This document shows positions 17,920 to 54,733 of a stretch of DNA of 64,000 bases, one piece after another. This DNA comes from Candidatus Daviesbacteria bacterium. GTDB taxonomy: Bacteria; Patescibacteriota; Microgenomatia; Daviesbacterales; UBA10151. Position numbers and translations under genes: made by a program. The notes under the pieces were generated by a model. That model did not search any database. It was not told where the DNA came from and saw nothing but the letters and a program-made list of their open reading frames with translations. The number at the start of each line of letters is the position of its first letter. Positions within the stretch are counted from its first letter, which is position 1. The stretch spans positions 94,616 through 158,615 of the forward strand of contig JACPKL010000010.1 in the NCBI GenBank assembly GCA_016187035.1, given 5' to 3'.

Positions 17920-18666
17920 ATGGAGTTTATTTTCTGGCCAGTTTTAGTCTTCCTAATTATTATTCTTCTTGCTGGCATCAAGATTATTGACCAATATCAA
18001 AGGGGTGTCGTTTTAACTCTTGGAACTTTTACAGGAGTTCTAAATCCAGGATTGAAAATTGTCATCCCCATTATCCAAAGGCTTATCAGAGTAGATTTGA
18101 GGATTACCACAGCTGATATTCCTCAACAAGAGGTTATTACTAAAGACAATGTGCCTGTTGGGATTAACGCAGTGGTCTATTTCCAAGTTGTCAGACCAGA
18201 GGATGCTGTTTTAAAAATTCAGGATTATCATTATGCTGTCACCCAATATGCCCAAACTGCTTTAAGAGATGTGATAGGTGGAGTGGAGCTGGATATGCTT
18301 CTGACAGAAAGAGAGAAGCTAGCAGAACAAATTAAGGCACTAGTAGATAAAGAAACAGATCAATGGGGTGTAAATGTTAACGCCATCAAGATGCAGGATA
18401 TTGAGCTACCAGCTGATATGAAAAGGGTGATGGCTAAACAGACTGAGGCAGAAAGAGAACGAAGAGCAACAATTATTAGAGCTCAAGGAGAGTTGTCAGC
18501 ATCAAAAAACCTGCAAGAAGCTATGCAGAATATGAATCAATCAGGCGGGATTGCCTTAAGAACTTTACAAACAATTGAGGCAACAACTGCCAATCCTGCC
18601 AATACTGTAGTTTTTGCACTTCCCACTGAAGTATTGGCAGGACTTAAGAATTTATTGAAAAAATAA
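17920..18666 (+). CDS. SPFH/band-7 (stomatin/prohibitin-like) membrane protein
   Basis: N-terminal TM helix followed by an SPFH domain and a coiled-coil region. Confidence 0.85.
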   Translation: MEFIFWPVLVFLIIILLAGIKIIDQYQRGVVLTLGTFTGVLNPGLKIVIPIIQRLIRVDLRITTADIPQQEVITKDNVPVGINAVVYFQVVRPEDAVLKIQDYHYAVTQYAQTALRDVIGGVELDMLLTEREKLAEQIKALVDKETDQWGVNVNAIKMQDIELPADMKRVMAKQTEAERERRATIIRAQGELSASKNLQEAMQNMNQSGGIALRTLQTIEATTANPANTVVFALPTEVLAGLKNLLKK

Positions 18667-18677
18667 TGACATCAATT

Positions 18678-19352
18678 TCATTTAATTTCTTTTAAAAACT
18701 CCTCTGCCAGTTGGCCTGTGTTTGAGGCAGGAGAATAAAAGTTTTTCCAAACCACCACAATATCTGCATCATTAAAGATGGCTCTTTGCACCTCTCTGAT
18801 AGTATCTCCCCCAGCAATGGAGATCATGGTATTAAAACTACTTCTGATTTTATTAATCTGAAGATAAGGGATAGGTTTGTTTTTATCAAAAGCTTCCTCA
18901 TCAACACCTCTATGCAGTATTACAACATTAGGCATTTTTTTAAGTTTTCTGAAAACTTTAATCGGCTGTTCTACACCAATCATATCTACCATTGAATCCA
19001 AACCTAAATCCTCGCATGAAGAAATAAAGTAATTAATTGTTTCAATAGGGGCTGCTCCTAAAGCCGTAGCTGCGCTGGCTCTTCCACTTCGGGCAATCTC
19101 CACCTCTGTTTTACCCCTATCCATGCACTTGGTATCAGCCACAATATACACATCTGTCTCTGCTTGATATTGCCAAGCTTCTTTTAATCTCCTAATTCCG
19201 TCTACTCCATAGGCCTTAATCAGAGGAGTTCCAGCTTCAATAATAATCCTGTCTGAGGAGGGAAGTTGAGAAATGATTTCCTCCCCTTCTTCAGGTGTGC
19301 TATTCAAAGCAATTTGTAGATATTTCTTCTTTTTATCAAGTAAGGTAGGCAT
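18678..19352 (-). CDS. 3-hexulose-6-phosphate synthase-like (OMP decarboxylase superfamily)
   Basis: IIEAGTPLIKAYG and VADTKCMD motifs, as in HxlA/HPS. Confidence 0.6.
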   Translation of the reverse strand: MPTLLDKKKKYLQIALNSTPEEGEEIISQLPSSDRIIIEAGTPLIKAYGVDGIRRLKEAWQYQAETDVYIVADTKCMDRGKTEVEIARSGRASAATALGAAPIETINYFISSCEDLGLDSMVDMIGVEQPIKVFRKLKKMPNVVILHRGVDEEAFDKNKPIPYLQINKIRSSFNTMISIAGGDTIREVQRAIFNDADIVVVWKNFYSPASNTGQLAEEFLKEIK

Positions 19353-19354
19353 AA

Positions 19355-21349
19355 CTATTTCTTTTGAAAATTCTGCAGATTTTCTTTGGCAATTGTCAAA
19401 TCAGGATCAATTTCCAAAGCTTTCTTAAATTCCACAATAGCCTCTGCAATATTTCCTTGTAATGCTAAGGTGTAGCCGAGATTATTATGTGCCAAGGCAT
19501 GTTGTGGGTCAAGCTGTAATGCTGCCTTTTGCTGACTCACTGCCTCTTTTAACATCCCTTTTGCTCTATATGTTTCTCCTAAATTAATATAAATTGTCGC
19601 TTGTTTAGGATCATATTTGAGGGCGTTCTTAAAAGCTTCTTCTGCTAAAGCAAACTGCTTGGTATTATTGTAGTAAACTAAACCCAAGTTTTCATAAATC
19701 CGAGCTTTTTCCACTACACTATCTGAGATATTTAAAGCTTTTTGATATGTTCGTATAGCCTCCTGAAAACGGCCTTCTAAAGTATACAATGTGGCTAGAT
19801 AATCCAATACATTTGCCTCTTTTGGATTAGCCTGTGCCACTCTTTCTAATCTCTCGATAGCTTCTTTCTCATCACCCTGTAAATATCTAATTTCTGAACT
19901 TAATATATAAGCATCCATACTTTTTGGATCTTTGTCCAAACTTTTGCCTATCGCAGTTCTTGCTTCTGGTAATTGATTTAGTTCTTTATGAGCTAGGGCC
20001 GCAAAATAATGAACATAAGATTTATCAATATCTTGTCGTTTGGCTTTTTGATAAGATTCAACAGCTTTTTGGTAATCACCATTTAGGGTATAAAGCCTAA
20101 CCAAGTAACCGTATACTAAACCGTATTTTGGATCTATTTTTAAAGCTTTGTGGCAATAACCTATCGCTTTTTCTATATCTTGTTTATTATAGTATCCCCA
20201 ACAGAGACTGGCATGAATTACTGGGATGTTTTCATTAATCTGAGCAGCTTTGTGATACATCTCAATAGCCTGATCAACTTTTTCTTGATCTATAAAATAA
20301 TGGCCATAAGTTGTATATGCAGGTAAGAATTTATCATCCTTTTTAAGCGCTTTTTGAATATAATTTAGAGCTTGATCAAATTTCTTTTGATCAAGGTAAT
20401 ATTGAGCATAAGCAATCCGAATAGAGGTATCTAAATTATTTAGTTTTATATAACTTGGAAAGTTATGTTGTAGTTGTTCATAGTAAGGAACAATTTTTAG
20501 TGTTTCTTTCAAAGGTATTTTTTGATTAAAGATACTTTCCTTTATAAAGAAGATACTATTAAACCGAGTAACAAGAAATGACTTGGCAAATATAATCACT
20601 CCAATAATAAAAATTATTGAGAATACCCGCCAAAAGGATGTTCCTAACCAGGTGGTCAGTACTGTAGGGGTAGTTGGTTGTGGCTTTTGTCCATTTCTAA
20701 TTTGATCTTTCTGATTAGACAATATTTCAATTTGTTTTAGGTATACTTCTTCAGCTTTTAATACAGCTGATATATGTTCCAAAGGATAATTTTTACCTTT
20801 TTCCTTAGCTTTGCTAGCAATAAAAACCCTCAGATCCTGTTCATCAATCTCGATAGGTTGTTTTGTCTTTATCTCGCCAACATTTTTAACTAAACCAATT
20901 TTTTGTTGATACTCAAATTCCAGATCTAAAATGAGATTGATATCATCTTTTTTAAGAGTAGACTGGAGATTGAGTGGAAGATGTTGATATGTAACTGAAG
21001 CTACCTGATCTGGATCATAAATTGGCAGGCGAGATTTAAGGAGTCTTTCATATAAAAAACTAAGCGGGATAGCGATTATGACTAAACTTATAAACAGTCC
21101 GACAATAACAGATCTGTTATAACCCCAGTCGGTAGCTATCTGAAAGGAAAGACTGCCTATAAGAGCAAAAATAATAAAATACATCAAACCCCAAACGACC
21201 GCCCAAACTCCTTCTTTTAAAGAGGCATCTGCAGAATATAGCCTTCTTTTAAAAACTCCAATTAAATTCTGAAAAGCAATCACCCATATTAATAGCGTCC
21301 CTAAAGCAAATAGAATCAATCTACCATTTATATCGACTAAGCCAGTCAT
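19355..21349 (-). CDS. TPR-repeat membrane protein
   Basis: N-terminal TM helices followed by more than 10 TPR-like repeats. Confidence 0.6.
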   Translation of the reverse strand: MTGLVDINGRLILFALGTLLIWVIAFQNLIGVFKRRLYSADASLKEGVWAVVWGLMYFIIFALIGSLSFQIATDWGYNRSVIVGLFISLVIIAIPLSFLYERLLKSRLPIYDPDQVASVTYQHLPLNLQSTLKKDDINLILDLEFEYQQKIGLVKNVGEIKTKQPIEIDEQDLRVFIASKAKEKGKNYPLEHISAVLKAEEVYLKQIEILSNQKDQIRNGQKPQPTTPTVLTTWLGTSFWRVFSIIFIIGVIIFAKSFLVTRFNSIFFIKESIFNQKIPLKETLKIVPYYEQLQHNFPSYIKLNNLDTSIRIAYAQYYLDQKKFDQALNYIQKALKKDDKFLPAYTTYGHYFIDQEKVDQAIEMYHKAAQINENIPVIHASLCWGYYNKQDIEKAIGYCHKALKIDPKYGLVYGYLVRLYTLNGDYQKAVESYQKAKRQDIDKSYVHYFAALAHKELNQLPEARTAIGKSLDKDPKSMDAYILSSEIRYLQGDEKEAIERLERVAQANPKEANVLDYLATLYTLEGRFQEAIRTYQKALNISDSVVEKARIYENLGLVYYNNTKQFALAEEAFKNALKYDPKQATIYINLGETYRAKGMLKEAVSQQKAALQLDPQHALAHNNLGYTLALQGNIAEAIVEFKKALEIDPDLTIAKENLQNFQKK

Positions 21350-23304: not shown

Positions 23305-24219
23305 TTAAAACCAGCTCTTTTTCTTTGAAGATAAATTATATAACTCTTCATAAAGCTGTTTTTCTTGTTTGGATGGGTTTTTAGGAATCTGTAGGTTCAC
23401 TCTGACATAATGATCCCCCTGCCCTGAAGATCCCAAGCGTGCTATACCCTTACCTTTAAGCTTAACCAAAGAACCAGGCTGGGTACCTGGAGGCACTTTA
23501 ACTTTAACCTTGCCAGAAACAGTCTCTACTTCAAACACATCCCCTAAAACCAGCTGGGGAATGTTAACAGTAATTTCTGAAAAGACATCTGCTCCTTCTC
23601 TTAAAAACTGGGGATGGCGGCTAACTTGAAAAATAATATCCAGATCACCAAATCTCATCTTAGTACCGTTATCAACACCGGCTGGAACTTTAATCTTCAT
23701 TCTCTGCCGTGTTAATCTGCCTTGCTGATTTCTTTCTTCTATTTCAATCTCTTTTGTTACCCCATTTGCAGCCTCATTAAAGGTGATGTTTAACTGGTAA
23801 GTCGGACGTCTTCTAAAGGTTTGGCCGAAAGGGGAGCCTCCTCCAAAAATTTGTTCAAATAAATCAAACGGGTCTTCAAAACCTCCAAAATCAAACTGGA
23901 CATTAGGCCCGCCCTGAGCGGAGCCGAAGGGATTTCCTCCTGTATTTGACCAGGAGTATGTGCTAAAACCACCTTGATTACCAAAACCTCCAAAAGGAGT
24001 AGGACCAGCATGGCCAAATTGATCGTAGGATTTTCTCTTTTGAGCATCTGACAAAACCTGGTAAGCTTCAGAGATTTCTTTAAATTTCTCGGAAGCATCA
24101 GCAGTTTTATCTACATCAGGATGATGTTTTCTGGCAAGTCTTCTGTATGCAGACTTAATTTCGCTATCTGAGGCAGATTTGCCAATACCCAAAACCTCGT
24201 AGTAATCTCGTTTTGCCAT
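23305..24219 (-). CDS. dnaJ: DnaJ-class co-chaperone lacking the Zn-finger (CbpA-like)
   Basis: J-domain with HPD, a G/F region and C-terminal domains, and no CxxCxGxG repeats. Confidence 0.8.
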   Translation of the reverse strand: MAKRDYYEVLGIGKSASDSEIKSAYRRLARKHHPDVDKTADASEKFKEISEAYQVLSDAQKRKSYDQFGHAGPTPFGGFGNQGGFSTYSWSNTGGNPFGSAQGGPNVQFDFGGFEDPFDLFEQIFGGGSPFGQTFRRRPTYQLNITFNEAANGVTKEIEIEERNQQGRLTRQRMKIKVPAGVDNGTKMRFGDLDIIFQVSRHPQFLREGADVFSEITVNIPQLVLGDVFEVETVSGKVKVKVPPGTQPGSLVKLKGKGIARLGSSGQGDHYVRVNLQIPKNPSKQEKQLYEELYNLSSKKKSWF

Positions 24220-25178: not shown

Positions 25179-27098
25179 TTATTCTTTTTTGTCTTCTTCT
25201 ACCACTTCACCTTCCACAGCCTCCTCAGTTTTGGGAGCTGCTTCCTCTTTGGGTTGCTCATCTGTTGGTTGTTCTGCTCCTGGCTGAGGTCCAGGCTGTC
25301 CACTTGGCTGTTGATACATAGCAGCTCCTACTTTTTGGGCTGACTCAGCCAAAGCGTCTGCTTTGGTTTTAATATCCTCTGTTGAACCAGATTTTAGGGC
25401 TTCTTTCAGCTCATTTATTTTTTGCTCAACTTCAGTCCTGACTTCAGCCGATACTTTATCCGAAGCATCCTTTAAAGTCCGCTCAGTTGAATAAACCAGG
25501 CTGTCAGCAGTGTTTTTTACCTCAATTCCCTCTTTTCTCTTTTTATCCTCCTCAGCATGAGCTTCTGCTTCCTTTGTCATTTTCTCTACTTCATCTTTGG
25601 ACAAACCTGTGGAACCGGTAATAGTAATTTTTTGTTCTTTGTTGGTAGCTTTATCTTTGGCTGAAACATTTAAAATGCCATTAGCGTCAATATCAAAGGT
25701 AACTTCAACTTGTGGCACACCCCTGGGAGCAGGAGGAATTCCGTCCAAAACAAACCTGCCTAAAGATTTATTATCAGCTGCCATCTCCCTTTCACCTTGT
25801 AATACATTAATTTCTACAGCCGGCTGGTTATCTGCAGCTGTTGAAAATACCTCAGATTTTGAAGTAGGAATAGTAGTATTTCTTGGGATTAATGGCGTCC
25901 TTACTCCACCTAAGGTTTCTATACCTAAAGTCAGGGGAGTCACATCTAAAAGCAGCACGTCTTTAACTTCTCCTCCCAACACTCCACCCTGGATAGCAGC
26001 TCCCACAGCTACCACTTCATCGGGGTTAATCCCTTTGTGCGGTTCTTTGCCAAAAAAGTCTTGGACCGACCTTTGACAGAGGGGCATCCTGGTCATTCCA
26101 CCCACCAGCACTACTTCATCAACATCTTTTGCTTCTATCTTGGCATCTTTTAAGGCAGCTTTAACAGCATCAAAGGTCTTGTCAATTAAAGGTTTAACCA
26201 TAGCTTCAAGTTTTGCTCTTGACAGCTTCATCTCCAAATGCTTGGGGCCAGAGGCATCAGCTGTGATAAAGGGAATGGAGATTGCTGCCTCCTGGGTTGA
26301 GGACAATTCAATTTTCGCTTTTTCTGCAGCATCCCTTAACCTTTGCAAAGCCTGTCTGTCGCCTTTAAGATCAATTCCCTGCTCTTTTTTAAATTCTTCT
26401 GCTAACCAGTCCAAAATCACCTGGTCAAAATCATCTCCACCCAAATGAGTATCACCATTAGTTGATTTAACCTCAAATACACCGTCTCCCAACTCAAGGA
26501 TGGAGATATCAAAAGTTCCGCCACCTAAATCATAAACAGCAATGGTATGTGCGTGAGCTTTATCCAAACCATAAGCCAAAGCAGCAGCAGTCGGCTCATT
26601 AATAATCCTTTGAACATTTAACCCGGCTATTTCACCAGCTTGTTTGGTGGCTTGCCTTTGGGCGTCATCAAAATAGGCCGGAACTGTGATAACTGCATCT
26701 GTCACTTTCTCACCCAAATAGCCTTCAGCATCTGCTTTAATCTTTTGTAAAATCTGGGCAGAAATTTCCTGGGGGGTATACTCATGGCCTTCTACTTCCA
26801 CAACAGCCATACCTTCCCTGCCTTCTTTGATAGTGTAAGGAAGCCATTTAATATCTCTTTGCACTTCAGGATCTTTAAACTTTCTGCCCATTAACCTCTT
26901 GATAGAAAAGATGGTTTCTTTAGGGTTTACTACAGCCTGTCTTTTGGCTACCCTGCCAACAATGTTTTTAATAGGATTAACAACAGAAGGGATAATATTT
27001 TCCCCCTCAGCACTATGAATAACTTTGGGCTTACCACCTTCCATTACAGCCACGGCAGAATTGGTTGTTCCTAAATCAATGCCTACAATTTTGCTCAT
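25179..27098 (-). CDS. dnaK: chaperone DnaK (Hsp70)
   Basis: [18 protein letters not shown] and related motifs. A canonical AAGGAGG Shine-Dalgarno lies upstream. Its start overlaps the grpE stop. Confidence 0.95.
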
Positions 27099-27649
27099 AT
27101 TGCCTCCTTAATAGATCCTTCGGCTCGTCCGCCTTCGGCGAGACTTCGCTCAGGATGATCGTTTGACTTTCGTCCCACGATCACCTGAGCAGGCCTAATT
27201 ACCTTATCATTTAAAGTATAACCTTTTCTGACTACTTTTAATATTTTATTATCATCCCCCTCTGCTGTGTCAACTGCTTCATGAAGGGCAGGATCAAATA
27301 CTCCGTCTGCAGGTATCTGATCCAACCCCTCCTGAGCTAATACCTGATTAAACTCTTTTACTGCCAGCTCTACCCCCTTAAACCACCCATTCAACTCGCT
27401 TCGCTCGCTCAGGGCGGGACCGCTCTGCTTATCTTGCTCTGATATCCCTGTTAAAGCTTGCTCCAAATGATCTAGAACAGGCAGCAATCTTTTAACCAAT
27501 TCCGCTCCCACAAAACTAGTTAATTCAGATCTACCCTGACTAACCCTTGATTCCAAATTCCTGTAATCAGCCACTGCTCTTTTCAACTGAGAATCTAACT
27601 CAGCAATTTTTTGTTCTAATTCTTTAACTTTGTCTTGTTTTTTTGCCAT
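27095..27649 (-). CDS. grpE: nucleotide exchange factor GrpE with GC-rich insertion-like patches
   Basis: GrpE coiled-coil and beta-domain. GC-rich segments at 27110-27190 and 27396-27432. Confidence 0.85.
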
Positions 27650-28835: not shown

Positions 28836-29498
28836 ATGCAAAAAGGATCAGCTCTAATTTTTTTATTGGTAGGAGTATTAGTTATCATTGTAGCTGGCGG
28901 AGCATTTTACCTTGGTAAATTAACCCTTCGTCAAAATTCCTCAGGGCAAACTACACCAAAACCATCTTCAGTGACTGCCGTACAACCCACTCCTCAAACT
29001 ACACCAGTCTCCAGTCCTTCTGATGAAACCGCCAACTGGAAAACATACACAGATACTCAACTGGGGTTTTCTCTTAAATATCCTGAGGGTTGGATAGTTG
29101 AATCTGCAGGAACACCTTCGGGATCAACCAGATTAAACAACAATAATACTAATTGGGGAAAAATTGCTACAGAGCAGAACAAAAAAACATACCAAGTTAT
29201 TGACGACACTTTTGGTGTGGAAATAGTTAGGTCTAGTGACCCAGCTTACATTTCCGATATAGGCGAGAATAGACTAATAAAATCAGAGACAACTGTTGTT
29301 GATGGAATAACTGGCAAGAAGCAATACTTTAGGAACAGCAGCGAACCTCGTCTTGGGACTGGTGTGGCAGTAAAGATCACAAGGGGCAAGTATACGTACA
29401 GTATAGCAGGTGGCCTAACTGACCAAACCCAAGAATACTTAGACTCTCAATATGCTAAGATTTTTGACCAAATTCTTTCTACCTTTAGATTCGACTAG
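28836..29498 (+). CDS. secreted/anchored hypothetical protein (MQKGSALIFLLVG... anchor)
   Basis: N-terminal anchor, a P/T/S-rich linker and a globular C-terminus. Confidence 0.45.
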   Translation: MQKGSALIFLLVGVLVIIVAGGAFYLGKLTLRQNSSGQTTPKPSSVTAVQPTPQTTPVSSPSDETANWKTYTDTQLGFSLKYPEGWIVESAGTPSGSTRLNNNNTNWGKIATEQNKKTYQVIDDTFGVEIVRSSDPAYISDIGENRLIKSETTVVDGITGKKQYFRNSSEPRLGTGVAVKITRGKYTYSIAGGLTDQTQEYLDSQYAKIFDQILSTFRFD

Positions 29499-29518
29499 CT
29501 CACTACAAGTAAATTCCT

Positions 29519-39131: not shown

Positions 39132-39761
39132 AAATTCTGCTTGGGGTTTTTCTAAAAGGCCGGATTTTATTTTGAAATCTATATCTAAAATATTTTTATA
39201 AAGATTTATTATTTTTTCTAAATTAAAATTTTTTCTTTGTCTTTCCAATTTTTCCCTCATAAACGGTTTTGCCCCTTTGGGAGTAACTGCTAAATTCCTT
39301 AACAGATAAAAAACCATGGTAATAAAATATTGCATTTCAAACCCTGCATTTTTTAATTTTTCTATCTCTATAAAAGCTTTTTTGTCGGAAGTTGCCAAAT
39401 AATCTAAAAACGGAAAAACAGATACTTCTCTAGCTTCCGGGAAAAAGAGAATCTGTCCTTTACTGCTTTCAACCCATTTAATAACAGCTTTTTTCTGATT
39501 GACCTCATGGTCAAACCACATGATGAGTTGGTAGTTGGTAGTTGGTAGTTGGTAGTTGGTAAAATCTTCCGGAGGATTTTCTAAGATGATTAATCGGAGA
39601 TCTGAGAAAAGTAAAGGAGTGACTAGAGCGCCTAATATGGTTTGCAAATCAAATCCTTCTTCAAAAACTACTACATTATTTGTATCAAATCCTTGTTTTA
39701 AATCTATTAATTTTTTTCTTGAAGCAGTTTTAGCGGACCCGTGCAGCAGCAGTAGCTTCAT
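39099..39761 (-). CDS. DNA polymerase III delta subunit-like (HolA-like, short), containing an in-frame heptanucleotide microsatellite
   Basis: N-terminal LLLHG...FSDLRLIIL resembles HolA. A (TACCAAC)x5 repeat encodes TNYQLPTTNYQL. Confidence 0.45.
   Translation of the reverse strand: MKLLLLHGSAKTASRKKLIDLKQGFDTNNVVVFEEGFDLQTILGALVTPLLFSDLRLIILENPPEDFTNYQLPTTNYQLIMWFDHEVNQKKAVIKWVESSKGQILFFPEAREVSVFPFLDYLATSDKKAFIEIEKLKNAGFEMQYFITMVFYLLRNLAVTPKGAKPFMREKLERQRKNFNLEKIINLYKNILDIDFKIKSGLLEKPQAEFLLVNLFCHQV
39527..39561. repeat. (GTTGGTA)x5 perfect tandem heptanucleotide repeat inside a CDS
   Basis: 35-bp perfect array at 39527-39561. Confidence 0.9.
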
Positions 39762-43822: not shown

Positions 43823-43859
43823 TATGCAAGTAGGTATTACTCATGGAAGAAACATTACT

Positions 43860-44120
43860 ATGAGAGAATTGGAAACCACCCTGACGCAGAAGGGTCAAGT
43901 GACAATCCCCGTGGAGATCCGTTCCCGCCTGGGCCTGAAACCGAAAGATAAGGTGCGGTTTGAAGTGGAGGGGGATGAAGTCAAGATCAAGCCCGCGCCC
44001 TCGCGCATTGCCCGCCACTTTGGGGCGGTGGCTGTATCTGGAAAGTCGCTGGATTGGCGAGTCGAGCGGAAGGCGTTTGAGGAAGGCGTGGCCGAGGAGG
44101 TAGTGGCCGAGGATCGGTGA
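43860..44120 (+). CDS. vapB: AbrB/MazE (SpoVT-AbrB) family antitoxin VapB
   Basis: TLTQKGQVTIPVEIRSRLGLKPKDKVRFEVEGDEVKIKP swapped-hairpin motif in GC-rich DNA. Overlaps vapC by 4 bp. Confidence 0.75.
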   Translation: MRELETTLTQKGQVTIPVEIRSRLGLKPKDKVRFEVEGDEVKIKPAPSRIARHFGAVAVSGKSLDWRVERKAFEEGVAEEVVAEDR

Positions 44121-44542
44121 TGTCTATGCCACGCTTCCTGGACACCAATATCCTGCTGCGCTACTTCACAGGCAGTGGTAGCGAGAAGGCCCTGGCAGCC
44201 AAAGTACTGCTTGAGCGCATAGAACAGAGCGAGGAGAAGGTAGTCATCTCCGTACTGGTGGTGTTTGAGACAATTTTCACCCTACAGCGCACCTACAAGG
44301 TGCCCAAGGTCAAGATCCGCGAGATGGTCGGCGATGTGATCGCCCTGCGCGGTGTCCAACTCACGGGCAAACGGCTATGCTTGCAAGCCTTGGATCTCTA
44401 TGTGGGAAAAAACATCTCCTTCGCCGACGCCTACAACGTCATCTACATGCAGTCGCAGCAGTTCTCGGAGATCTACAGCTGGGATACCGACTTTGACAGG
44501 ATCGAGGGCATTACTCGCATTGAGCCAGCCCAGGATATGTAA
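44117..44542 (+). CDS. vapC: PIN-domain toxin VapC
   Basis: FLDTNILLRYF N-terminal PIN motif and conserved acidic residues, in GC-rich DNA. Confidence 0.8.
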   Translation: MMSMPRFLDTNILLRYFTGSGSEKALAAKVLLERIEQSEEKVVISVLVVFETIFTLQRTYKVPKVKIREMVGDVIALRGVQLTGKRLCLQALDLYVGKNISFADAYNVIYMQSQQFSEIYSWDTDFDRIEGITRIEPAQDM

Positions 44543-44647: not shown

Positions 44648-46651
44648 ATGCCCACTTCGCAAAAGCTCAGTGTAAACTTTCTTGATGACTTAAATTCCAT
44701 TCAACAAAAAGCGGTTAAAACAACTGAGGGACCGGTATTAATTTTGGCCGGGGCTGGCTCCGGCAAAACCAGGGTGTTAACTTACCGCGTAGCTTATTTG
44801 ATTGCTGAGAAAAAGATTCCTCCTGAAAATATCCTTTGCCTGACCTTCACAAATAAAGCTGCTGGAGAAATGATGGATCGTATTTTAAAACTTTTGGACC
44901 ACCAGCTACCAGCTACTAACTACCAACTACCTATTATGGGCACTTTTCATTCTTTTTGTGCCAAAATCCTAAGACGTGATGGCAAAGCCTTAGGATTGCC
45001 TCCTGGCTTTACCGTATATGATGAATCCGATGCATTAGATGCTATAAAAGAAGCTATGGGTAATTTGAATATTCCGACCCAAAAAACTTCTCCTTTTTCA
45101 GTAAGACACACTATTTCTTCAGCTAAAAATGAATTAATTTCTGCACTTGAATACCCACAATATGCCAGAGGGTATTTCCAGGAAACTGTAGCTAAAATTT
45201 ATTTAGAATATCAGAAGATTTTAGAGAAAAATAAAGCCCTGGATTTTGATGACCTGCTGCTGACAACTATTAAGCTGTTTCAAACAGAACCAGCTATATT
45301 GACCCGCTATCAAATTCAATTCCGTTATATCTTAATAGATGAATACCAGGATACCAACCCTGCTCAATATCTGATTTCAAAATATTTAGCAAACAGGCAT
45401 AAAAATATTTGTGTAGTCGGGGATGCTTCACAATCTGTGTATTCTTTCAGAGGAGCAGATTTCAGAAACATTGTTAATTTTCAAAAAGACTACCCAAACG
45501 CTAAAGTTTTTAACCTGGAGCAAAATTACCGCTCTACCCAAAATATCCTGGATGCAGCCCATGCTGTAATTTCTAAAAATAAATTACATCCTATTTTGAA
45601 ACTTTGGACAAATAAAAATGGGGGAGAAAAAATTGAAATAGTGGAGGTAAGAAATGAAATTGAGGAAGCTCTATTTATCTTGTCCACCATAGATCACCTC
45701 CGAGGTGTAAGCGCATTTTTTCACCTCGGAGGTGTAGCCGTGCTTTATAGAACTAATGCCCAATCCCGTGCTTTAGAAGAACAATTTTTAAAATCTGGTA
45801 TCCCTTATAAATTAGTTGGTGGAGTAAGCTTTTACGAGAGAAGAGAGATTAAAGATATTTTATCCTACCTTAGGTTACTGCAAAATCCTAAGGACTCTGT
45901 ATCTTTAAAAAGAGCAGAAAAAATTGGCAAAGGAAGACTGGGAAAAGTTTTAGGATTCTCAGCGTCATTGCGGGGAATCGGACCGAGCGAAGCCAAGTCA
46001 GACTTGGTTTCGCCAAGTCTGACTTGGCGAAGCGAGGGAGATCGCTTGCAAAATGCGAAGCATTTTGACAAGGGCTCGAGTGAAACGAGCGGCCCTTCAG
46101 GCCTCGGAATGACCACAATCGAGCTATTAGATCAACTTCTAGCAAAAACAGGCTATTTGGCTTATTTGGATGATGGAACAGATGAAGGAGGGGGCAGGGT
46201 GGAAAATGTTAAAGAACTTAGGTCGGTAGCAGAAGAGTTTCCTAGTTTAGTCCAATTTTTAGAGAACGTGGCTTTGGTGGAAAATGGTTTTCTGCCTTCT
46301 TCTGAAAAAAATATTCAGCAAGACGTAGTAACTTTAATGACCCTGCATTCTGCTAAAGGCTTGGAGTTTCCGACAGTTTTTATGGTAGGAATGGAGGAAG
46401 GACTATTCCCCCATTCACGCTCTATGCTAAATCCTCAGGAACTTGAAGAGGAAAGAAGGCTTTGTTATGTGGGCATCACCAGGGCAAAAGAAAAATTATA
46501 TTTAACTTACAGCAGGCAAAGATTATATTTTGGCACCAGATCTAATAATTTAGTTTCCCGCTTTTTATCTGATATTCCCCAAGACTTAATTTCCTCTAAC
46601 ACAAACTTCAAAAACCAAGATCAAGATAATGAAGATTGGTTAAACACATGA
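44648..46651 (+). CDS. uvrD: ATP-dependent DNA helicase UvrD/PcrA, carrying an in-frame palindromic insert
   Basis: AGAGSGKTRVLT Walker A and UvrD motifs throughout. Insert at about 45965-46113. Confidence 0.9.
   Translation: MPTSQKLSVNFLDDLNSIQQKAVKTTEGPVLILAGAGSGKTRVLTYRVAYLIAEKKIPPENILCLTFTNKAAGEMMDRILKLLDHQLPATNYQLPIMGTFHSFCAKILRRDGKALGLPPGFTVYDESDALDAIKEAMGNLNIPTQKTSPFSVRHTISSAKNELISALEYPQYARGYFQETVAKIYLEYQKILEKNKALDFDDLLLTTIKLFQTEPAILTRYQIQFRYILIDEYQDTNPAQYLISKYLANRHKNICVVGDASQSVYSFRGADFRNIVNFQKDYPNAKVFNLEQNYRSTQNILDAAHAVISKNKLHPILKLWTNKNGGEKIEIVEVRNEIEEALFILSTIDHLRGVSAFFHLGGVAVLYRTNAQSRALEEQFLKSGIPYKLVGGVSFYERREIKDILSYLRLLQNPKDSVSLKRAEKIGKGRLGKVLGFSASLRGIGPSEAKSDLVSPSLTWRSEGDRLQNAKHFDKGSSETSGPSGLGMTTIELLDQLLAKTGYLAYLDDGTDEGGGRVENVKELRSVAEEFPSLVQFLENVALVENGFLPSSEKNIQQDVVTLMTLHSAKGLEFPTVFMVGMEEGLFPHSRSMLNPQELEEERRLCYVGITRAKEKLYLTYSRQRLYFGTRSNNLVSRFLSDIPQDLISSNTNFKNQDQDNEDWLNT
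45965..46113 (+). repeat. GC-rich palindromic element (GTCATTGCGGGG...CCTCGGAATGAC termini) inserted in-frame in uvrD
   Basis: Imperfect 12-bp terminal inverted repeats, internal palindromes ccaagtcagacttgg x2, and GC far above the local value. The ORF stays open across it. Confidence 0.65.
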
Positions 46652-48781: not shown

Positions 48782-49178
48782 AAGCGAATTTATCTTTCAA
48801 ATAAGAATAGTATATTTTTCTAATGTGAGCGCTATCGTAATAATTCCTAGCAGCGAATACTTCAAAATAAACCTTAGCCTGTTCTGATTTCTGATAAATA
48901 CATTTTCCGGTACTTATAACTTGAAACAAAAATATTGGGGAAGATCTTTTATCAACTACAGACAAATCCAAATCCTTAGGAAAACTAATATGGGAAATTA
49001 GATTATAAACATCCTTATGGTCTAGTCTGGATACATCATCTATCACCACAGCTAAATCAAAATCGCTCTCCTTTTTTACTCTACCACTAACTGCCGAACC
49101 TAAAACATAGGCCAGTTTTATTTTCGGCTCCTTGGATAAAGCTGTGTTAATTTGCTTAGTCAAATTATTATCTATCAT
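48771..49178 (-). CDS. mnt: MNT-type minimal nucleotidyltransferase antitoxin
   Basis: GSAVSGRVKKESDFDLAV (GSx9-13DxD) motif. Overlaps hepT by 11 bp. Confidence 0.75.
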   Translation of the reverse strand: MIDNNLTKQINTALSKEPKIKLAYVLGSAVSGRVKKESDFDLAVVIDDVSRLDHKDVYNLISHISFPKDLDLSVVDKRSSPIFLFQVISTGKCIYQKSEQAKVYFEVFAARNYYDSAHIRKIYYSYLKDKFAYAG

Positions 49179-50622: not shown

Positions 50623-51705
50623 ATGGATTTAAGGCCAATAGCTGACAAACAAAAATCTCAATACAACAAATTAGTTACTCATGTTATCCAGTCATGGGAG
50701 TGGGGAGAATTTAGAAAATCATTAGGGTTACCGGTTTTAAGATATGGGCTTTTTGAAGCTAACCAACTTACTGCAGCTTTTCAACTGACTTTGCACAAAA
50801 TACCTTTTACTAACAAATATGCCGGCTATTTACCAAAAGGCCCTGCTTCTGATTCGCAACTAGCTGAGGCTTTGGAAAAGATTGGCAGAAAACATAATTG
50901 CGCTTTTATCAAGCTGGAACCTAATATCCCCGTCATTGCGAGCGAAGCGAAGCAATCTTCTACCTTAACTAATAAGATTGCCACAGTACGTTCAGTTGAC
51001 ATGAACGTACCTCGTAATGACAAATTAGTAGATAAAAGTTTTATTCCTTCTCCAAAACCATTATTTACTAAATATAATTTTGTTTTGGATCTAACACAAT
51101 CAGAAGAGCAAATTTTAAAAAACATGCATTCAAAAACCAGATACAATATTAAACTAGCTCAAAAACATGAAGTAAAAGTTGAAGAAAAAACTGATGATGA
51201 AGCTTTTAAGATTTATTTAAAATTATATTTTGAAACAACTAAAAGGCAAGGTTACCATGGACATAATGAGTATTATCACCAAAAGGTTTGGGAAACTTTA
51301 AAAAAAACAGGAATGGCCAGATTACTGATTGCCTCATACAAAAACGAGCCTTTAACTGCCTGGATGCTTTTGAATTTCAAAGACACCCTTTATTACCCTT
51401 ATGGCGGATCTAACAAAAACCATCCGGAAGTAATGGCCAGTAACTTGATAGCCTGGGAAGCTATAACTTTAGGTAAAAAGCTGAAGCTTAAAAAGTTTGA
51501 TATGTGGGGAGCTTTGGGACCTGATGCTAATTCCAAAGATCCCTGGTATGGATTTCATAGATTTAAAGCTGGTTTCGGAGGAAAACTCATAGAATATATC
51601 GGCACTTATGATTTAGTCTTTGACTGGCCACTTTACTGGATGTTTACTTTAATAGATAAATTAACACCACTAAAAGTCTTTCTGTTAAAATTACTTGGAA
51701 AATAG
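50623..51705 (+). CDS. FemAB-family peptidoglycan interpeptide-bridge peptidyltransferase, carrying an in-frame palindromic insert
   Basis: FemAB/MurM-like N-terminus (HVIQSWEWGEF) and a GNAT-like C-terminal half. Insert at 50932-51021. Confidence 0.7.
   Translation: MDLRPIADKQKSQYNKLVTHVIQSWEWGEFRKSLGLPVLRYGLFEANQLTAAFQLTLHKIPFTNKYAGYLPKGPASDSQLAEALEKIGRKHNCAFIKLEPNIPVIASEAKQSSTLTNKIATVRSVDMNVPRNDKLVDKSFIPSPKPLFTKYNFVLDLTQSEEQILKNMHSKTRYNIKLAQKHEVKVEEKTDDEAFKIYLKLYFETTKRQGYHGHNEYYHQKVWETLKKTGMARLLIASYKNEPLTAWMLLNFKDTLYYPYGGSNKNHPEVMASNLIAWEAITLGKKLKLKKFDMWGALGPDANSKDPWYGFHRFKAGFGGKLIEYIGTYDLVFDWPLYWMFTLIDKLTPLKVFLLKLLGK
50932..51021 (+). repeat. 90-bp GC-rich palindromic element with perfect 11-bp terminal inverted repeats GTCATTGCGAG / CTCGTAATGAC, in-frame in the FemAB-like CDS
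   Basis: Shares its ends, core (gcgaagcaatcttc...aataagattgccac) and translation frame with the sbcD copy. Confidence 0.7.
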
Positions 51706-51777: not shown

Positions 51778-52284
51778 ATGGACACTACACTAATCATCTC
51801 CGGAGGTATTTTGATAGGCTGCATTATATCCCTATCCTGGTTTGCTGGCTCTGATGCACCCTTTGTACCCACCAAAATGGATCATATCAGAAAAATCCTC
51901 AAGCTTGCCGGAGTTAAAAAAGGAAAAAGATTTTATGAGCTAGGATCTGGTGATGGCAGGGTTGTCCTTGCTGCTGCCAAACTGGGTGCTTATGCCGTTG
52001 GCATAGAACAATCCTGGATTAGGATTTTATATTCCAAACAATTAGCTTTACACCTTCCAGGTATCAACGTAAAGTTCTATCATGGAAATTTATTTTCCAA
52101 ATCCTATAAAGATGCTGATATTATTTATATTTACCTGCTTCATAAAGGTGTTAAGAAACTGGAGGAAAAGCTTAAAAAGGAATTAAAAAAAGGTGCTATA
52201 GTAATTACCCAAACTTATCATTTCCCAAACTGGAGACCATTTAAAAAAGAGGGGGATTTTTGGTTGTACAAACAAACATTTTAG
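51778..52284 (+). CDS. small class I methyltransferase-like protein
   Basis: YELGSGDGRVVLAAAKLGAYAVGIE Rossmann motif I. Confidence 0.5.
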   Translation: MDTTLIISGGILIGCIISLSWFAGSDAPFVPTKMDHIRKILKLAGVKKGKRFYELGSGDGRVVLAAAKLGAYAVGIEQSWIRILYSKQLALHLPGINVKFYHGNLFSKSYKDADIIYIYLLHKGVKKLEEKLKKELKKGAIVITQTYHFPNWRPFKKEGDFWLYKQTF

Positions 52285-53468
52285 TGTACGATCGTACAAG
52301 CAATTGGTACGGCTTTTGTAATCTGCTCAAGTCTCTCGTTTCTAATTGTATACAAATCCTCTATTCTGACCCCACCAAACATAGGAATATAAATCCCAGG
52401 CTCTATGGAAAAAACCATTCCTGTCTTTAAAACTTCCTTGCTTTTGGGTGAAAGGGAAGGATGTTCATGAACTTCAAGTCCTATCCCATGACCTAAGGAG
52501 TGAGGTAAATTCGGATAACCCTTAGACTTAATATAATCCCTGGCTACTTTGTCTACATCTGCTGACTGCACTTGCTTAGTAGAATTAATATAGTCTACTG
52601 CTTTCTTTTGTGCTTCTAAAGCTACCTCGTACATTTCCTGTTGTTTCCTGATAGGTTTTCCAAAAAATACAGTCCTGGTCATATCAGAACAATAATTTTC
52701 CCATTTTACTCCGAAATCGAGAAGGACGATTAGTCCTTCTCGTCCTGAGCGAGACTTCGACGGTGAGCTCAGTCGAACCGCGGAGCGAGTCGCACGTTCG
52801 ACAAGCTCAGTGCGACCCTGAGCGACAGTCGAATGGGTCGAAAGACCCAAAACAGTTTGTCCAGTTTGATGATGCGGTATAGCAGAATTTTTACCAAAAG
52901 CAACTATAGCTGGAAAAGAAAACTCTCCTCCTTGCCCTTTAATAAAATCCTCCAATTTATTAGCAATTTCTTTTTCAGTTACACCTATTTTAATCTGTTT
53001 TAAAATATACTCAAAAGCCAAATCCCCTATCTTACAAGCCTTTTTTATTTTCTTTATTTCATCAGGAGTTTTTATGCTCCTATTTAATTTAAAATGTTTT
53101 GTGGTTTTAAAATGCTTTTTTACTAATTTTGCCTCTAGTACAGTTAAATTATCCTCCTCTATTCCTAAAATTTTAATTTGATTTTTTAGCTTTTTAAACA
53201 ACTGTTCCGTTGGTGTTTGATGACTTCTTTCAAAAAGTTCAAAATGTGGCACTTGTTTTTTTATGGCATGGGTATATCTGCCATCAGTAATAATATATTG
53301 AAGATTATTTCCTATTATTAAGTAGGCTTCTCTTTCTTCCTTTGAAAAATTAGCATAACCTGTCAGATAAGTAATATTAGAAACAGAGGAAATAAAAACT
53401 GCATCTAATTTTCTTTCTTTAAGATTTTCCCTGATATTTTTTAATCTGGTTACAAACATGCCCCACAT
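52281..53468 (-). CDS. pepP: Xaa-Pro aminopeptidase (M24B), carrying a GC-rich in-frame insert
   Basis: Creatinase-like N-domain with M24 metal ligands (HGIGLEVHE) at the C-terminus. GC-rich insert at about 52745-52855. Confidence 0.8.
   Translation of the reverse strand: MWGMFVTRLKNIRENLKERKLDAVFISSVSNITYLTGYANFSKEEREAYLIIGNNLQYIITDGRYTHAIKKQVPHFELFERSHQTPTEQLFKKLKNQIKILGIEEDNLTVLEAKLVKKHFKTTKHFKLNRSIKTPDEIKKIKKACKIGDLAFEYILKQIKIGVTEKEIANKLEDFIKGQGGEFSFPAIVAFGKNSAIPHHQTGQTVLGLSTHSTVAQGRTELVERATRSAVRLSSPSKSRSGREGLIVLLDFGVKWENYCSDMTRTVFFGKPIRKQQEMYEVALEAQKKAVDYINSTKQVQSADVDKVARDYIKSKGYPNLPHSLGHGIGLEVHEHPSLSPKSKEVLKTGMVFSIEPGIYIPMFGGVRIEDLYTIRNERLEQITKAVPIACTIVH
52285..52298. repeat. TGTACGATCGTACA palindrome at a convergent gene junction
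   Basis: Perfect 14-bp palindrome between the 51778..52284 (+) and pepP (-) stops. Confidence 0.6.
52745..52855 (-). repeat. GC-rich palindromic in-frame insert within pepP, related to the grpE patch by the shared 11-mer gcgagacttcg
   Basis: Multiple internal inverted repeats (gctcagg/cctgagc, gggtctttcgaccc). Encodes HSTVAQGRTELVERATRSAVRLSSPSKSRSGREG. Confidence 0.55.
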
Positions 53469-53488: not shown

Positions 53489-54733
53489 TTGATGAAACTT
53501 CTTCATTTTTCTGATCTTCATATTGGGATGGAAAATTATGCTAAATTGGATCCTGAAACAGGATTATCCTCAAGACTTTTGGACTTTTTTAAAACTTTTG
53601 ATTTTATTGTTGAAACTGCTTTTACAGAAGATGTTGATGCTGTTATTTTTGCTGGAGATGCTTATAAAACCCGTGACCCAAACCCTACCCAGCAAAGAGG
53701 TTTTGGTGAAAGAATTAAAAAACTAGCCAAAAAAATCCCGGTAATATTGGTCGTGGGAAACCACGATACTCCTAATGCTGACGGCAAAGCTAATACTTTG
53801 GATATATATTCTGCTTTGGAAATAGAAAATGTTTTGGTATCAAGAAAACCTGAGTACTTAGAAATCTCCACTAAATCAGGCTCCTTACAAATTATCACTC
53901 TTCCCTGGCTGCATAAAAATGACTACAAAACAATCGGGGATAAACTGCAACTGCAGTATGACAAAATCAAACCTTCCTCTCCTGCTATACTTTTATCACA
54001 TGCTGAAGTAGAAGGAGCAACATATGGGTCTGAAAAAGGCCTGGCAATTGCAAATGATGTGACTATTCCCCTGCCTCTTTTACAGGATAAAAGAATATCT
54101 TATGCGGCTTTAGGCCATATCCACAAACATCAAGTTTTATCAAAAAACCCTTTGGTTGTTTACTGCGGCTCTCCCCAAAGGATTGATTTCGGAGAAGAAA
54201 AGGAAGAAAAAGGCATATGCCTTGTGGAAATAAGTCCCTCTTTGTCATTGCGAGCGACAGCGAAGCAATCTTCCACCTCCAATAATAAGATTGCCACGTC
54301 CTCGTCTACGGCGACTCCTCGCAATGACGGTTTTACCGCCTCTTTTCAATTTATCCCTACCAATGCCAGAAAATTTTTAACCATTATCGTTAATTTAAAA
54401 AACGGACAAGAAAACCCTACTCAAACCATTCTGGAAGAAATTCAAAATTATGATATTAAAGACAAGATAGTCAGGCTGATTATAAACATCCCTGCTGATT
54501 GTAATAAAGAAATCCATATGGACAAAATTAAAAAAGCTTTATCCGCCTCTCACCTGATTGCCGGTATTTCCAGAAATGTGGAAAGAGTAGAAAGGGTGAA
54601 GTTTGATGGAGGGAAAGAAGTGGAAACTTTAACACCAGTTATGGCTTTAAGAAAATATTTTGAGTTTAAAAAATACCCTCTTCAAAAACAAAAAGAGTTG
54701 GAAAAATACGCTGCCCAGCTGTTAGATAGTTAA
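53489..54733 (+). CDS. sbcD: exonuclease SbcD (Mre11-like), carrying an in-frame palindromic insert
   Basis: LLHFSDLHIG phosphoesterase motif I. Insert at 54244-54328. Confidence 0.85.
   Translation: MMKLLHFSDLHIGMENYAKLDPETGLSSRLLDFFKTFDFIVETAFTEDVDAVIFAGDAYKTRDPNPTQQRGFGERIKKLAKKIPVILVVGNHDTPNADGKANTLDIYSALEIENVLVSRKPEYLEISTKSGSLQIITLPWLHKNDYKTIGDKLQLQYDKIKPSSPAILLSHAEVEGATYGSEKGLAIANDVTIPLPLLQDKRISYAALGHIHKHQVLSKNPLVVYCGSPQRIDFGEEKEEKGICLVEISPSLSLRATAKQSSTSNNKIATSSSTATPRNDGFTASFQFIPTNARKFLTIIVNLKNGQENPTQTILEEIQNYDIKDKIVRLIINIPADCNKEIHMDKIKKALSASHLIAGISRNVERVERVKFDGGKEVETLTPVMALRKYFEFKKYPLQKQKELEKYAAQLLDS
54244..54328 (+). repeat. 85-bp GC-rich palindromic element with 11-bp TIRs GTCATTGCGAG / CTCGCAATGAC, within sbcD
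   Basis: Encodes ...RATAKQSSTSNNKIATSSSTATPRND..., paralleling the FemAB copy (...SEAKQSSTLTNKIAT...PRND...). Confidence 0.7.

Follow-up and report, generated by a model that had tools for sequence, protein, structure and literature searches.

GC-rich palindromic units, probably of a REP-like repeat family, form an in-frame insert in the pepP gene of a Candidatus Daviesbacteria bacterium

Palindromic repeats that lie in frame within genes are a well-known oddity of Rickettsia and of certain Proteobacteria rich in repetitive extragenic palindromic (REP) sequences. In yeast mitochondria, GC-rich palindromes known as GC clusters and 'byp' elements have spread into coding regions, and the byps are skipped by the ribosome. 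The coding palindromes of Nematomorpha mitochondria are likewise described as GC-rich palindromes in compact AT-rich genomes (PMC6649704). Rickettsia palindromic elements (RPEs) are found in frame in Rickettsia genes (Ogata et al. 2000, summarised in PMC10969869 and PMC3733652). Intragenic REPs encode 20-82 amino acids (43-82 for clusters), often in tRNA synthetase and DNA repair genes (PMC3733652). REPs with an unpaired GTAG tag are associated with RAYT, a tyrosine transposase of the IS200/IS605 type (PMC3733652), whereas for those tagged CGTC no dedicated transposase is known (Di Nocera et al. 2013, PMC3733652). In the CGTC families the stem has 8-9 bp and begins with AT, the loop has 4-5 nt and a CCA tail follows, and the unpaired tag, GTAG or CGTC, may also be TGTC or CCTC (PMC3733652). 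The present analysis concerns a stretch of 64,000 nucleotides from a Candidatus Daviesbacteria bacterium (GenBank assembly GCA_016187035.1, contig JACPKL010000010.1, positions 94,616 to 158,615), hereafter the window, in which the gene pepP, coding for a peptidase of the M24/Xaa-Pro aminopeptidase family, carries a GC-rich block of inverted repeats. The block is probably a cluster of GC-rich palindromic units from a selfish repeat family of the REP or RPE kind, read through as a disordered surface loop.

The pepP gene lies on the minus strand at 52281-53459 and encodes a protein of 392 residues identical to MBI2597414.1; its open reading frame (ORF) spans 52281-53468, the NCBI start being the fourth codon. 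Pfam matches Peptidase_M24 (1.5e-62) and Creatinase_N (5e-20), and the metal-ligand columns D251, D262, H327, E356 and E370 are all invariant in the PepP alignment. An earlier note, made from the sequence alone, had reported a block in this gene that encodes ...GLSTHSTVAQGRTELVERATRSAVRLSSPSKSRSGREG...; the block is present, its host domains are recovered by Pfam and its hairpins are found, with a GC content in the noted interval (52745-52855) of 59.5% instead of the claimed 65% or so. The insert itself, 36 codons (GLSTHSTVAQGRTELVERATRSAVRLSSPSKSRSGR) at 52740-52847 on the minus strand, has 108 nt, 61.1% GC and 15 CpG, compared with 1071 nt, 32.9% GC and 11 CpG for pepP outside it. Its limits were set against the empty site of locus L207, between tta and gaa, and against the short variants of L083, L085, L081, L208, L209 and L210. 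The window has 36.5% GC and is strongly depleted in CpG (918 observed, 2112 expected, ratio 0.43), with no depletion of GpC (2480). Its main CpG islands are the repeat units, the pepP insert being the strongest when a putative toxin-antitoxin pair at 43824-44542 is set aside. CpG density and clustering of unit words were informative for detecting such patches; a plain k-mer enrichment scan was not. The nearest relatives of the window proteins are those of Candidatus Daviesbacteria, in the Microgenomates of the Candidate Phyla Radiation (CPR).

Two of the six frames of the insert are open and one of them is that of the gene. The 108 nt are stop-free and in frame, and translational bypass and splicing, unnecessary with an open frame, were rejected as explanations. 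As single-stranded DNA, the 141-nt pepP region folds better than 200 of 200 shuffled sequences (z = -3.5), and as RNA it does not differ significantly from shuffles (z = -1.4). In an AlphaFold2 model built from 29 sequences, residues 210-242, within the insert, have a predicted local distance difference test (pLDDT) score below 50 and no secondary structure, and the catalytic domain scores 80-96. The insert is modelled as a low-confidence coil between two confident strands, directly before the LLDFG strand. It should be mentioned that the N-terminal domain is poorly modelled, and for this reason only this local statement is taken from the model. An independent Logan assembly (L211, from SRR12113422) is identical to the window over pepP and the initial ~75 nt of the insert, which confirms that the insert is not an artefact of the metagenome-assembled genome. 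From about position 835 that contig continues instead with sequence 3' of a dehydrogenase-like gene that is unrelated, either as a chimera induced by the repeat or at a second copy. Repeats behave in this way, and the jump shows that the SRR12113422 community contains at least one further copy with about 30 nt or more of the pepP insert.

Comparison of the 120 best-scoring PepP homologs shows that the segment is an insert. Most of these proteins have about 360 residues and pass from HHQTGxxxL straight to (E)KGxxVLLDFG without the segment, as do most PepP proteins of Daviesbacteria. A scattered subset has 'GPESSSGREG', 'GPSTPSGRSGQQG', 'GPSTQLSLRSGREG', 'LFVRSGREG', 'GPVVRRTRTLSSSGREG' or 'GLSTHSSTKEYRSGRG' at this site, and the 36-residue version of the window is the longest among the 120. 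In orthologous DNA, retrieved through exact-protein look-ups, the site is either empty or filled by 24 nt, about 33-45 nt or 108 nt, and the ends of the filled versions are the same throughout. Every DNA variant begins GGTC(C/t)T... and ends ...(G/T)(C/T)TCAGGACGA, and only the middle differs: a 5-nt loop in L083, which forms a perfect 8-bp hairpin, 11-14 nt between CCTTCGAC and GCTCAGG in L085, L209 and L210, and about 95 nt in the window. No clear target duplication was seen when empty and filled pepP sites were compared. In a neighbour-joining tree the insert-bearing orthologs are interspersed with empty ones, a pattern that is only suggestive at the low resolution of that tree. It is noted that one Daviesbacteria PepP has a second unit insert at another site (gtccttcgacttcgctcaggatcttcgac, L085:10792-10831, encoding ...SVLRLRSGSSTRSLK...).

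The insert is built of repeated units. Written as TTCGAC-N(2-5)-GCTCAG, three complete units are present where 0.01 would be expected, together with a fourth, outer unit that is split; the three are nested inside the outer one, whose halves are the conserved ends of the insert. The three were located by pattern match. U1, GA-CTTCGACGGTGAGCTCAG-TC, consists of a core 18-mer with its closing stem at 52753-52774 on the plus strand (unit match 52756-52772), U2 is TTCGACAAGCTCAG at 52797-52810 on the plus strand, and U3 is TTCGACTGTCGCTCAG at 52818-52833 on the minus strand, reading CCTGAGCGACAGTCGAATGG on the plus strand. One side is closed by a small hairpin, GGGTCGAAAGACCC (52835-52848), identified by folding and ortholog comparison. 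This hairpin holds the 5' half of the outer unit in gene sense, GGTCtTTCGAC, and the 3' half, GCTCAGGACGA, lies at 52740-52750. The terminal inverted repeats GGTCCT(GA)...(TC)AGGAC of the outer unit are found in all eight variants of the site. The left part of the insert (CCTGAGCGAG..GAGCGAGTCG, arranged as CCTGAGCGAGA[core]GAGCGAGTCG) has the frame of an element inside grpE, described below, interrupted by the U1 core, and arrangements of this type are found again in L127, L151 and L092. The elementary unit is a hairpin, in which a short variable stem NNCT/AGN'N' closes a conserved loop of 12-14 nt, TCGAC-N-GCTC.

A further hairpin, hairpin 2, joins inserted bases to the host gene at 52718-52742. 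It has the form CGAGAAGGAC-taatc-GTCCTTCTCG with a 10-bp stem and overlaps the codons R-E-G-L-I-V-L-L just before the metal-binding Asp. Its stem is retained in all seven insert-bearing orthologs read as DNA, with five pairs altered on both sides, for example CAACAAGGAT/ATCCTTGTTG in L209 and TCGAGGAGAAT/ATTCTCCTCGA in L081; 95.7% of cells are paired, a value reached by 0 of 500 shuffles. The empty-site allele of L207 has no hairpin 2.

The second host gene in the window is grpE, at 27095-27649 on the minus strand, whose product is 100% identical to MBI2597379.1 and matches Pfam GrpE (1.8e-37) over residues 3-159 of 184. The two GC-rich patches noted earlier in this gene both exist and encode the peptides quoted for them, with precise extents of 27392-27424 and 27114-27156 on the minus strand. 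The first is a 33-nt internal insert of 11 residues, which together with the host AATGG(G) gives CCTGAGCGAGCGAAGCGAGTTGAATGG. It is missing from L213 and L214 and present in L212, where 33 of 36 nt are identical, compared with 73% for the remaining gene; at the protein level, only a patchy subset of 120 GrpE orthologs has it. With the host AATGG it reads CCTGAGCGAGCGAAGCGAGT(C/T)GAATGG, the reverse-complement form of the unit, and the GTTGAA of the window as against GTCGAA in L212 represents one change from CpG to TpG. The second patch is the tail element ATCCTGAGCGAAGTCTCGCCGAAGGCGGACGAGCCGAAGGATC, 43 nt with the structure ATCCTGAGCG...(C/T)CGAAGGATC, of which 42 of 43 nt are identical in L213 as against 72% of the remaining gene. 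This is the 'C-terminal extension' of the earlier note; the tail is real, and a more accurate description is that a cluster of units fills the space from the GrpE domain end to the ribosome-binding site of dnaK. Because no stop codon occurs in that frame, GrpE runs through the patch to the ATGA (27095-27098) in which its stop overlaps the dnaK start. Among the 120 orthologs the tail is absent or replaced by other repeat-type peptides (PERAERVEGS, VIASEAKQS...PRND, SGQARMTE, NPPSMEETKNIPGGETQSDFHIPP). An RNA thermometer or regulator at the grpE-dnaK junction was considered and is unsupported, the tail being entirely different among orthologs. In-frame reading of the dnaK Shine-Dalgarno region supplies the final residues of GrpE, IKEAI, and likewise in L214.

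The patches of pepP and grpE have a common unit, CCTGAGCG...CGAA(G/T)G, or equivalently TTCGRC..GCTCAG. CCTGAGCGA occurs four times in the window, always within these patches (0.11 expected), and the unit TTCG[AG]C-N1-8-GCTCA[GC] seven times (0.1 expected). The relationship had earlier been argued from the 11-mer gcgagacttcg, which is indeed found at exactly the two positions given for it, one in pepP and one in grpE. Its sharing was held to be unlikely by chance, and the probability is about 1.2% for any 11-mer given the composition of the patches, which is weak evidence alone; since its orientation is opposite relative to the shared CCTGAGCGA motif, the 11-mer is a by-product of the near-palindrome. 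Clusters of unit words in the 64 kb (0.12 expected) fall in dnaJ, twice in grpE, in pepP and in an AT-rich interval, 49055-49137, which we judged by eye to be spurious. The dnaJ patch is a candidate unit, CCTGAGCGGAGCCGAAGGG, found by pattern match at 23913-23931 on the plus strand, in the Gly/Phe-rich region of a putative dnaJ named from its translation, and encoding NPFGSAQGG on the minus strand; it probably belongs to the family.

Two other groups of short sequences in the window are noted here. An isolated TTCGACTAGCTCAC at 29490-29503, which spans the stop of ORF 28836-29498 where the DNA is AT-rich, probably matches by chance or is a unit in decay. GTCATTGCG elements form inverted pairs in a UvrD-like helicase gene (45964-45972 on the plus and 46105-46113 on the minus strand), a FemAB-like gene (50932-50940 and 51013-51021, likewise) and an SbcD-like phosphoesterase gene (54244-54252 and 54320-54328, likewise). 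A 10-mer, CGAGCGAAGC, is common to the internal grpE patch and two of the GTCATTGCG elements (three copies, 0.02 expected). Like the CGTC-tagged REPs, the GTCATTGCG family begins with CGTC followed by AT and forms head-to-head inverted pairs (Di Nocera 2013, PMC3733652), and its membership of that class is plausible.

Copies of the unit are dispersed at unrelated sites in other genomes. The U1 18-mer CTTCGACGGTGAGCTCAG recurs exactly in another CPR genome (L007), where it lies in a GC-rich patch between genes, and in at least 120 metagenome contigs of 33-67% GC. Among the 128 core occurrences listed, about 110 continue with CC, TC or GAcnGTC followed by GAACCG, and the dinucleotides that flank the core covary: GG/CC in 62, TC/GA in 20 and GA/TC in 15. 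In the stem NNCT/AGN'N', 97.2% of cells are paired, compared with 78% in shuffles, none of 500 of which reaches that value, and 7-45% in slid controls. Composite copies of the form TTCGAC-AAGG-[core]-CCGAACC-GCTCAG have the same nested topology as in pepP, and their outer stems are variable and complementary, with a mean run of 4.7 against 3.35 +/- 0.19 in permutations. One locus, L151, has 44 nt in common with the pepP insert, in intergenic DNA beside what reads like a tRNA gene. Direct repeats GAGCGAG flank the core in four copies and are either a target duplication or part of a longer subfamily. In L124 (1-1800) a core copy stands upstream of a tRNA gene and a 23S rRNA gene, apparently inside an rRNA operon spacer.

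Unrelated housekeeping genes hold the core as well. In contigs of at most 50% GC, 38 of the listed copies are not at a contig end, and 15 of these fall within ORFs of 600 nt or more; the core-bearing ORFs encode arginyl-, glutamyl- and valyl-tRNA synthetases (ArgRS, GluRS, ValRS), initiation factor 2 (IF-2), YchF, MutS, a PurL-like protein, ribulose-phosphate epimerase (Rpe) and a P-type ATPase. The core has four stop-free frames, FDGELSRT, STVSSVEP, AVRLSSPSK and GSTELTVE, and all are used among 14 translated ORF copies, with AVRLSSPSK in PepP here, in ArgRS (L127) and in GluRS (L100). The lack of copies in stop-containing frames follows in part from the definition of 'inside an ORF'. In a contig of 59% GC, a ParB gene (L141:1049-2029) has the core in frame (...PEPDFGEASTVSSAEPLSRAAEG...), where it splits the ParB_N match in two. 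Relative to host genes, the core is found in either orientation. Intergenic copies are distributed over unidirectional, convergent and divergent gene pairs as 11:6:6, which matches the random 2:1:1, and a terminator-like placement is not seen. Core-bearing contigs of high GC encode LptF/LptG, AcrB, PSD1/DUF1553 and sigma-54 activators, a set which we take to be that of diderm, non-CPR bacteria, and on this ground the family probably extends beyond the CPR. One IMG/VR contig has the core and duplicates a metagenome locus; a BLAST search of phages with the pepP insert (52735-52855) gave one chance-level match, and one of PLSDB plasmids with the composite element gave none. Thus the suggestion of the earlier note that related GC-rich palindromes have colonised several coding regions is borne out by the inserts seen against orthologs, the common unit and the copies in unrelated housekeeping genes elsewhere. 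The comparison of PepP and GrpE with their orthologs, proposed there as a check, gave the same answer: the segments are inserts whose length and sequence are not conserved at the protein level.

We have compared these elements with the described systems. The RPEs share with them the palindromic repeats in a small AT-rich genome, placed in frame in unrelated housekeeping genes as well as between genes, absent from orthologs and apparently compatible with protein fold and function. However, RPEs are single elements of about 100-150 bp with one conserved peptide per family, confined to Rickettsia; the pepP block is set apart by that description, being an array of 14-25-nt units with a core read in four frames, and the pepP-type core occurs in contigs of widely differing GC and gene content. 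REPs and bacterial interspersed mosaic elements are likewise short palindromic units (20-40 bp for REPs) in many dispersed copies, single, paired or clustered, mostly intergenic and in some cases intragenic. In contrast to the GTAG and CGTC REPs, the pepP-type unit has no unpaired GTAG or CGTC tag and is closed by NNCT/AGN'N'; its loop has 12-14 nt and is conserved, as against 4-5 nt, its stem of 4-8 bp is variable, and its copies are not depleted between divergent genes. CGTC occurs once in the insert (52741-52744), paired within the outer stem GTCCT/AGGAC, and an assignment of the pepP-type unit to the CGTC-tagged REPs was rejected on account of the paired tag, a loop of excessive length and the lack of an AT start. 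Miniature inverted-repeat transposable elements (Correia/NEMIS, ERIC, the Coxiella QMITE) are also small, non-autonomous repeats with inverted ends that can fuse in frame with host ORFs, but the pepP-type elements are much shorter and nested, and no clear target-site duplication was found for them. The mitochondrial GC clusters, byps and coding palindromes share the spread of GC-rich palindromes in compact AT-rich genomes, including coding regions; byps are organellar and skipped, whereas the open frame of the pepP insert makes a bypass superfluous. In Rfam, neither the window nor 10 element-bearing loci had a match at gathering score, and the surroundings of the insert had none at E <=10. Literature searches with DNA and peptide strings returned nothing relevant or primers only, and found no in-frame palindromic elements of CPR or Patescibacteria. 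The kind of element is already known; this particular family, with the architecture of its units, its range of hosts and its breadth, was not found in Rfam or in the searched literature.

Several observations weigh against a selfish repeat. The loop of the unit is nearly invariant in contigs from 33% to 67% GC while its stem covaries, which selection for a function predicts more naturally than neutral junk does. The amino-acid-changing, compensatory substitutions in hairpin 2 need selection or gene conversion from arm to arm. The copies that underlie the copy and stem counts were chosen by exact match to the 18-mer, and the three stem types are three subfamilies, perhaps reflecting only a few events. 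The density of copies is low, with 4-5 patches per 64 kb here and 0-2 per 20 kb in relatives, and no transposase or related insertion sequence was seen in the loci inspected, for which no dedicated search was made. In another explanation, the unit is a functional structured RNA or single-stranded DNA motif, bound or processed by a widespread factor (in mRNA stability or processing, replication or recombination), with the copies in genes incidental or weakly functional. The conserved loop of 12-14 nt with its covarying closing stem in about 110 copies, the variable yet complementary outer stems of the composite copies, the compensatory changes in hairpin 2 and a conservation of the elements far above that of neighbouring synonymous sites all speak for it. 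However, a motif of this kind is hard to reconcile with a core that lies in both orientations relative to host genes and prefers no type of gene pair, with patchy presence among close orthologs, with an RNA fold of the pepP region that is not significant and with the lack of an Rfam match even at the loose cutoff. Gene conversion between the arms of hairpins could also account for the changes in hairpin 2 without a function, and we regard the functional motif as unlikely.

The inserts could also have been made locally, at a quasi-palindromic hot spot that grew by template switching or snap-back synthesis and by slippage, with the alleles spread by homologous recombination between strains. Inserts of different length at exactly one site with identical ends, their nested structure, their patchy distribution on the ortholog tree and a hairpin 2 that pairs inserted bases with the downstream codons of the host would all be accommodated. 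Such growth does not produce identical stretches of 18-44 nt in unrelated genes, intergenic DNA and unrelated genomes, or a second locus with at least about 30 nt of the pepP insert in an independent sample; because the same non-host sequence at many loci cannot arise locally, we consider this origin improbable. The view that the segments are adaptive at the protein level, with functions for the PepP loop and the GrpE tail, draws on the preserved reading frame, the intact annotation of the gene and the wide occurrence of short versions in Daviesbacteria PepP. It is very improbable, given that different proteins use four different frames of one and the same DNA, that neither length nor sequence is conserved in the protein, that many close orthologs do without the segment and that the segment is modelled with low confidence and no secondary structure. 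An artefact of assembly or binning, or a pseudogene, is scarcely credible. Repeats do break assemblies and the Logan contig is chimeric at the insert, but an independent assembly, with its gene context unchanged, again contains the initial ~75 nt of the insert, seven other assemblies have related inserts at the pepP site, the ORF is uninterrupted and every catalytic column is conserved.

Under the reading as a repeat family, which we prefer, the elements would be non-autonomous, mobile and largely neutral, and the following course may be proposed. An ancestor would have had one unit at the pepP site, GGTCCTTCGACAAGCTCAGGACGA-like, about 24 nt long and encoding 'GPSTSSGR/GPESSSGR', or such a unit would have spread by recombination. 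New units would then have entered existing ones between TTCGAC and GCTCAG, giving nested arrays, and the site would have grown in the window genome to 108 nt and four units. Because its length is a multiple of three, it is stop-free in frame and it lies in a surface loop just before the strand with the first metal-binding Asp, the array would simply be translated as a disordered loop of 36 residues. The same family would have supplied the 11-residue internal insert of grpE and filled the grpE-dnaK spacer, the odd GrpE tail arising by read-through, and units would persist in genes only where the frame they land in is free of stops and the place is a tolerant loop or the end of a gene. More tentatively, the hairpin unit may define a third, undescribed REP-like superfamily that spans the CPR and diderm phyla and homes into unit loops through a widely distributed machinery recognising structure plus sequence, a proposal we regard as possible and still doubtful. 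Homing into the loops of existing units would explain the nested arrays.

Some further features of the analysed DNA lie outside this argument. The interval 43824-44542 is an island of 60% GC in a 36% GC genome with two overlapping ORFs, which read as an AbrB/SpoVT-type antitoxin and a PIN-type toxin and are probably foreign DNA. A perfect tandem repeat of 7 nt, AGTTGGT x5, lies at 39526-39561, and its complement, ACCAACT x4.4, at a second site, 44901-44931, each within an ORF. In the related Daviesbacteria genome of L085, a thioredoxin-like gene (18633-20228) has an Intein_splicing domain.

If the proposed reading is correct, CPR bacteria undergo in-frame repeat invasion despite their tiny, gene-dense genomes, and the affected genes would include those for tRNA synthetases, IF-2, MutS, chaperone co-factors and peptidases. 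Where CPR proteins show odd loops, tails or 'lineage-specific extensions', these may then be repeat DNA rather than adaptation. Such repeats also break or chimerise assemblies, as in the Logan contig. A third REP-like superfamily, if real, would be a regular source of in-frame loops and tails in the housekeeping proteins of gene-dense CPR genomes. The near-invariant loop with its covarying stem, from 33% to 67% GC, points either to an undiscovered mobilising enzyme or to an undiscovered function, and the definition of the family makes this question accessible to comparative genomics.

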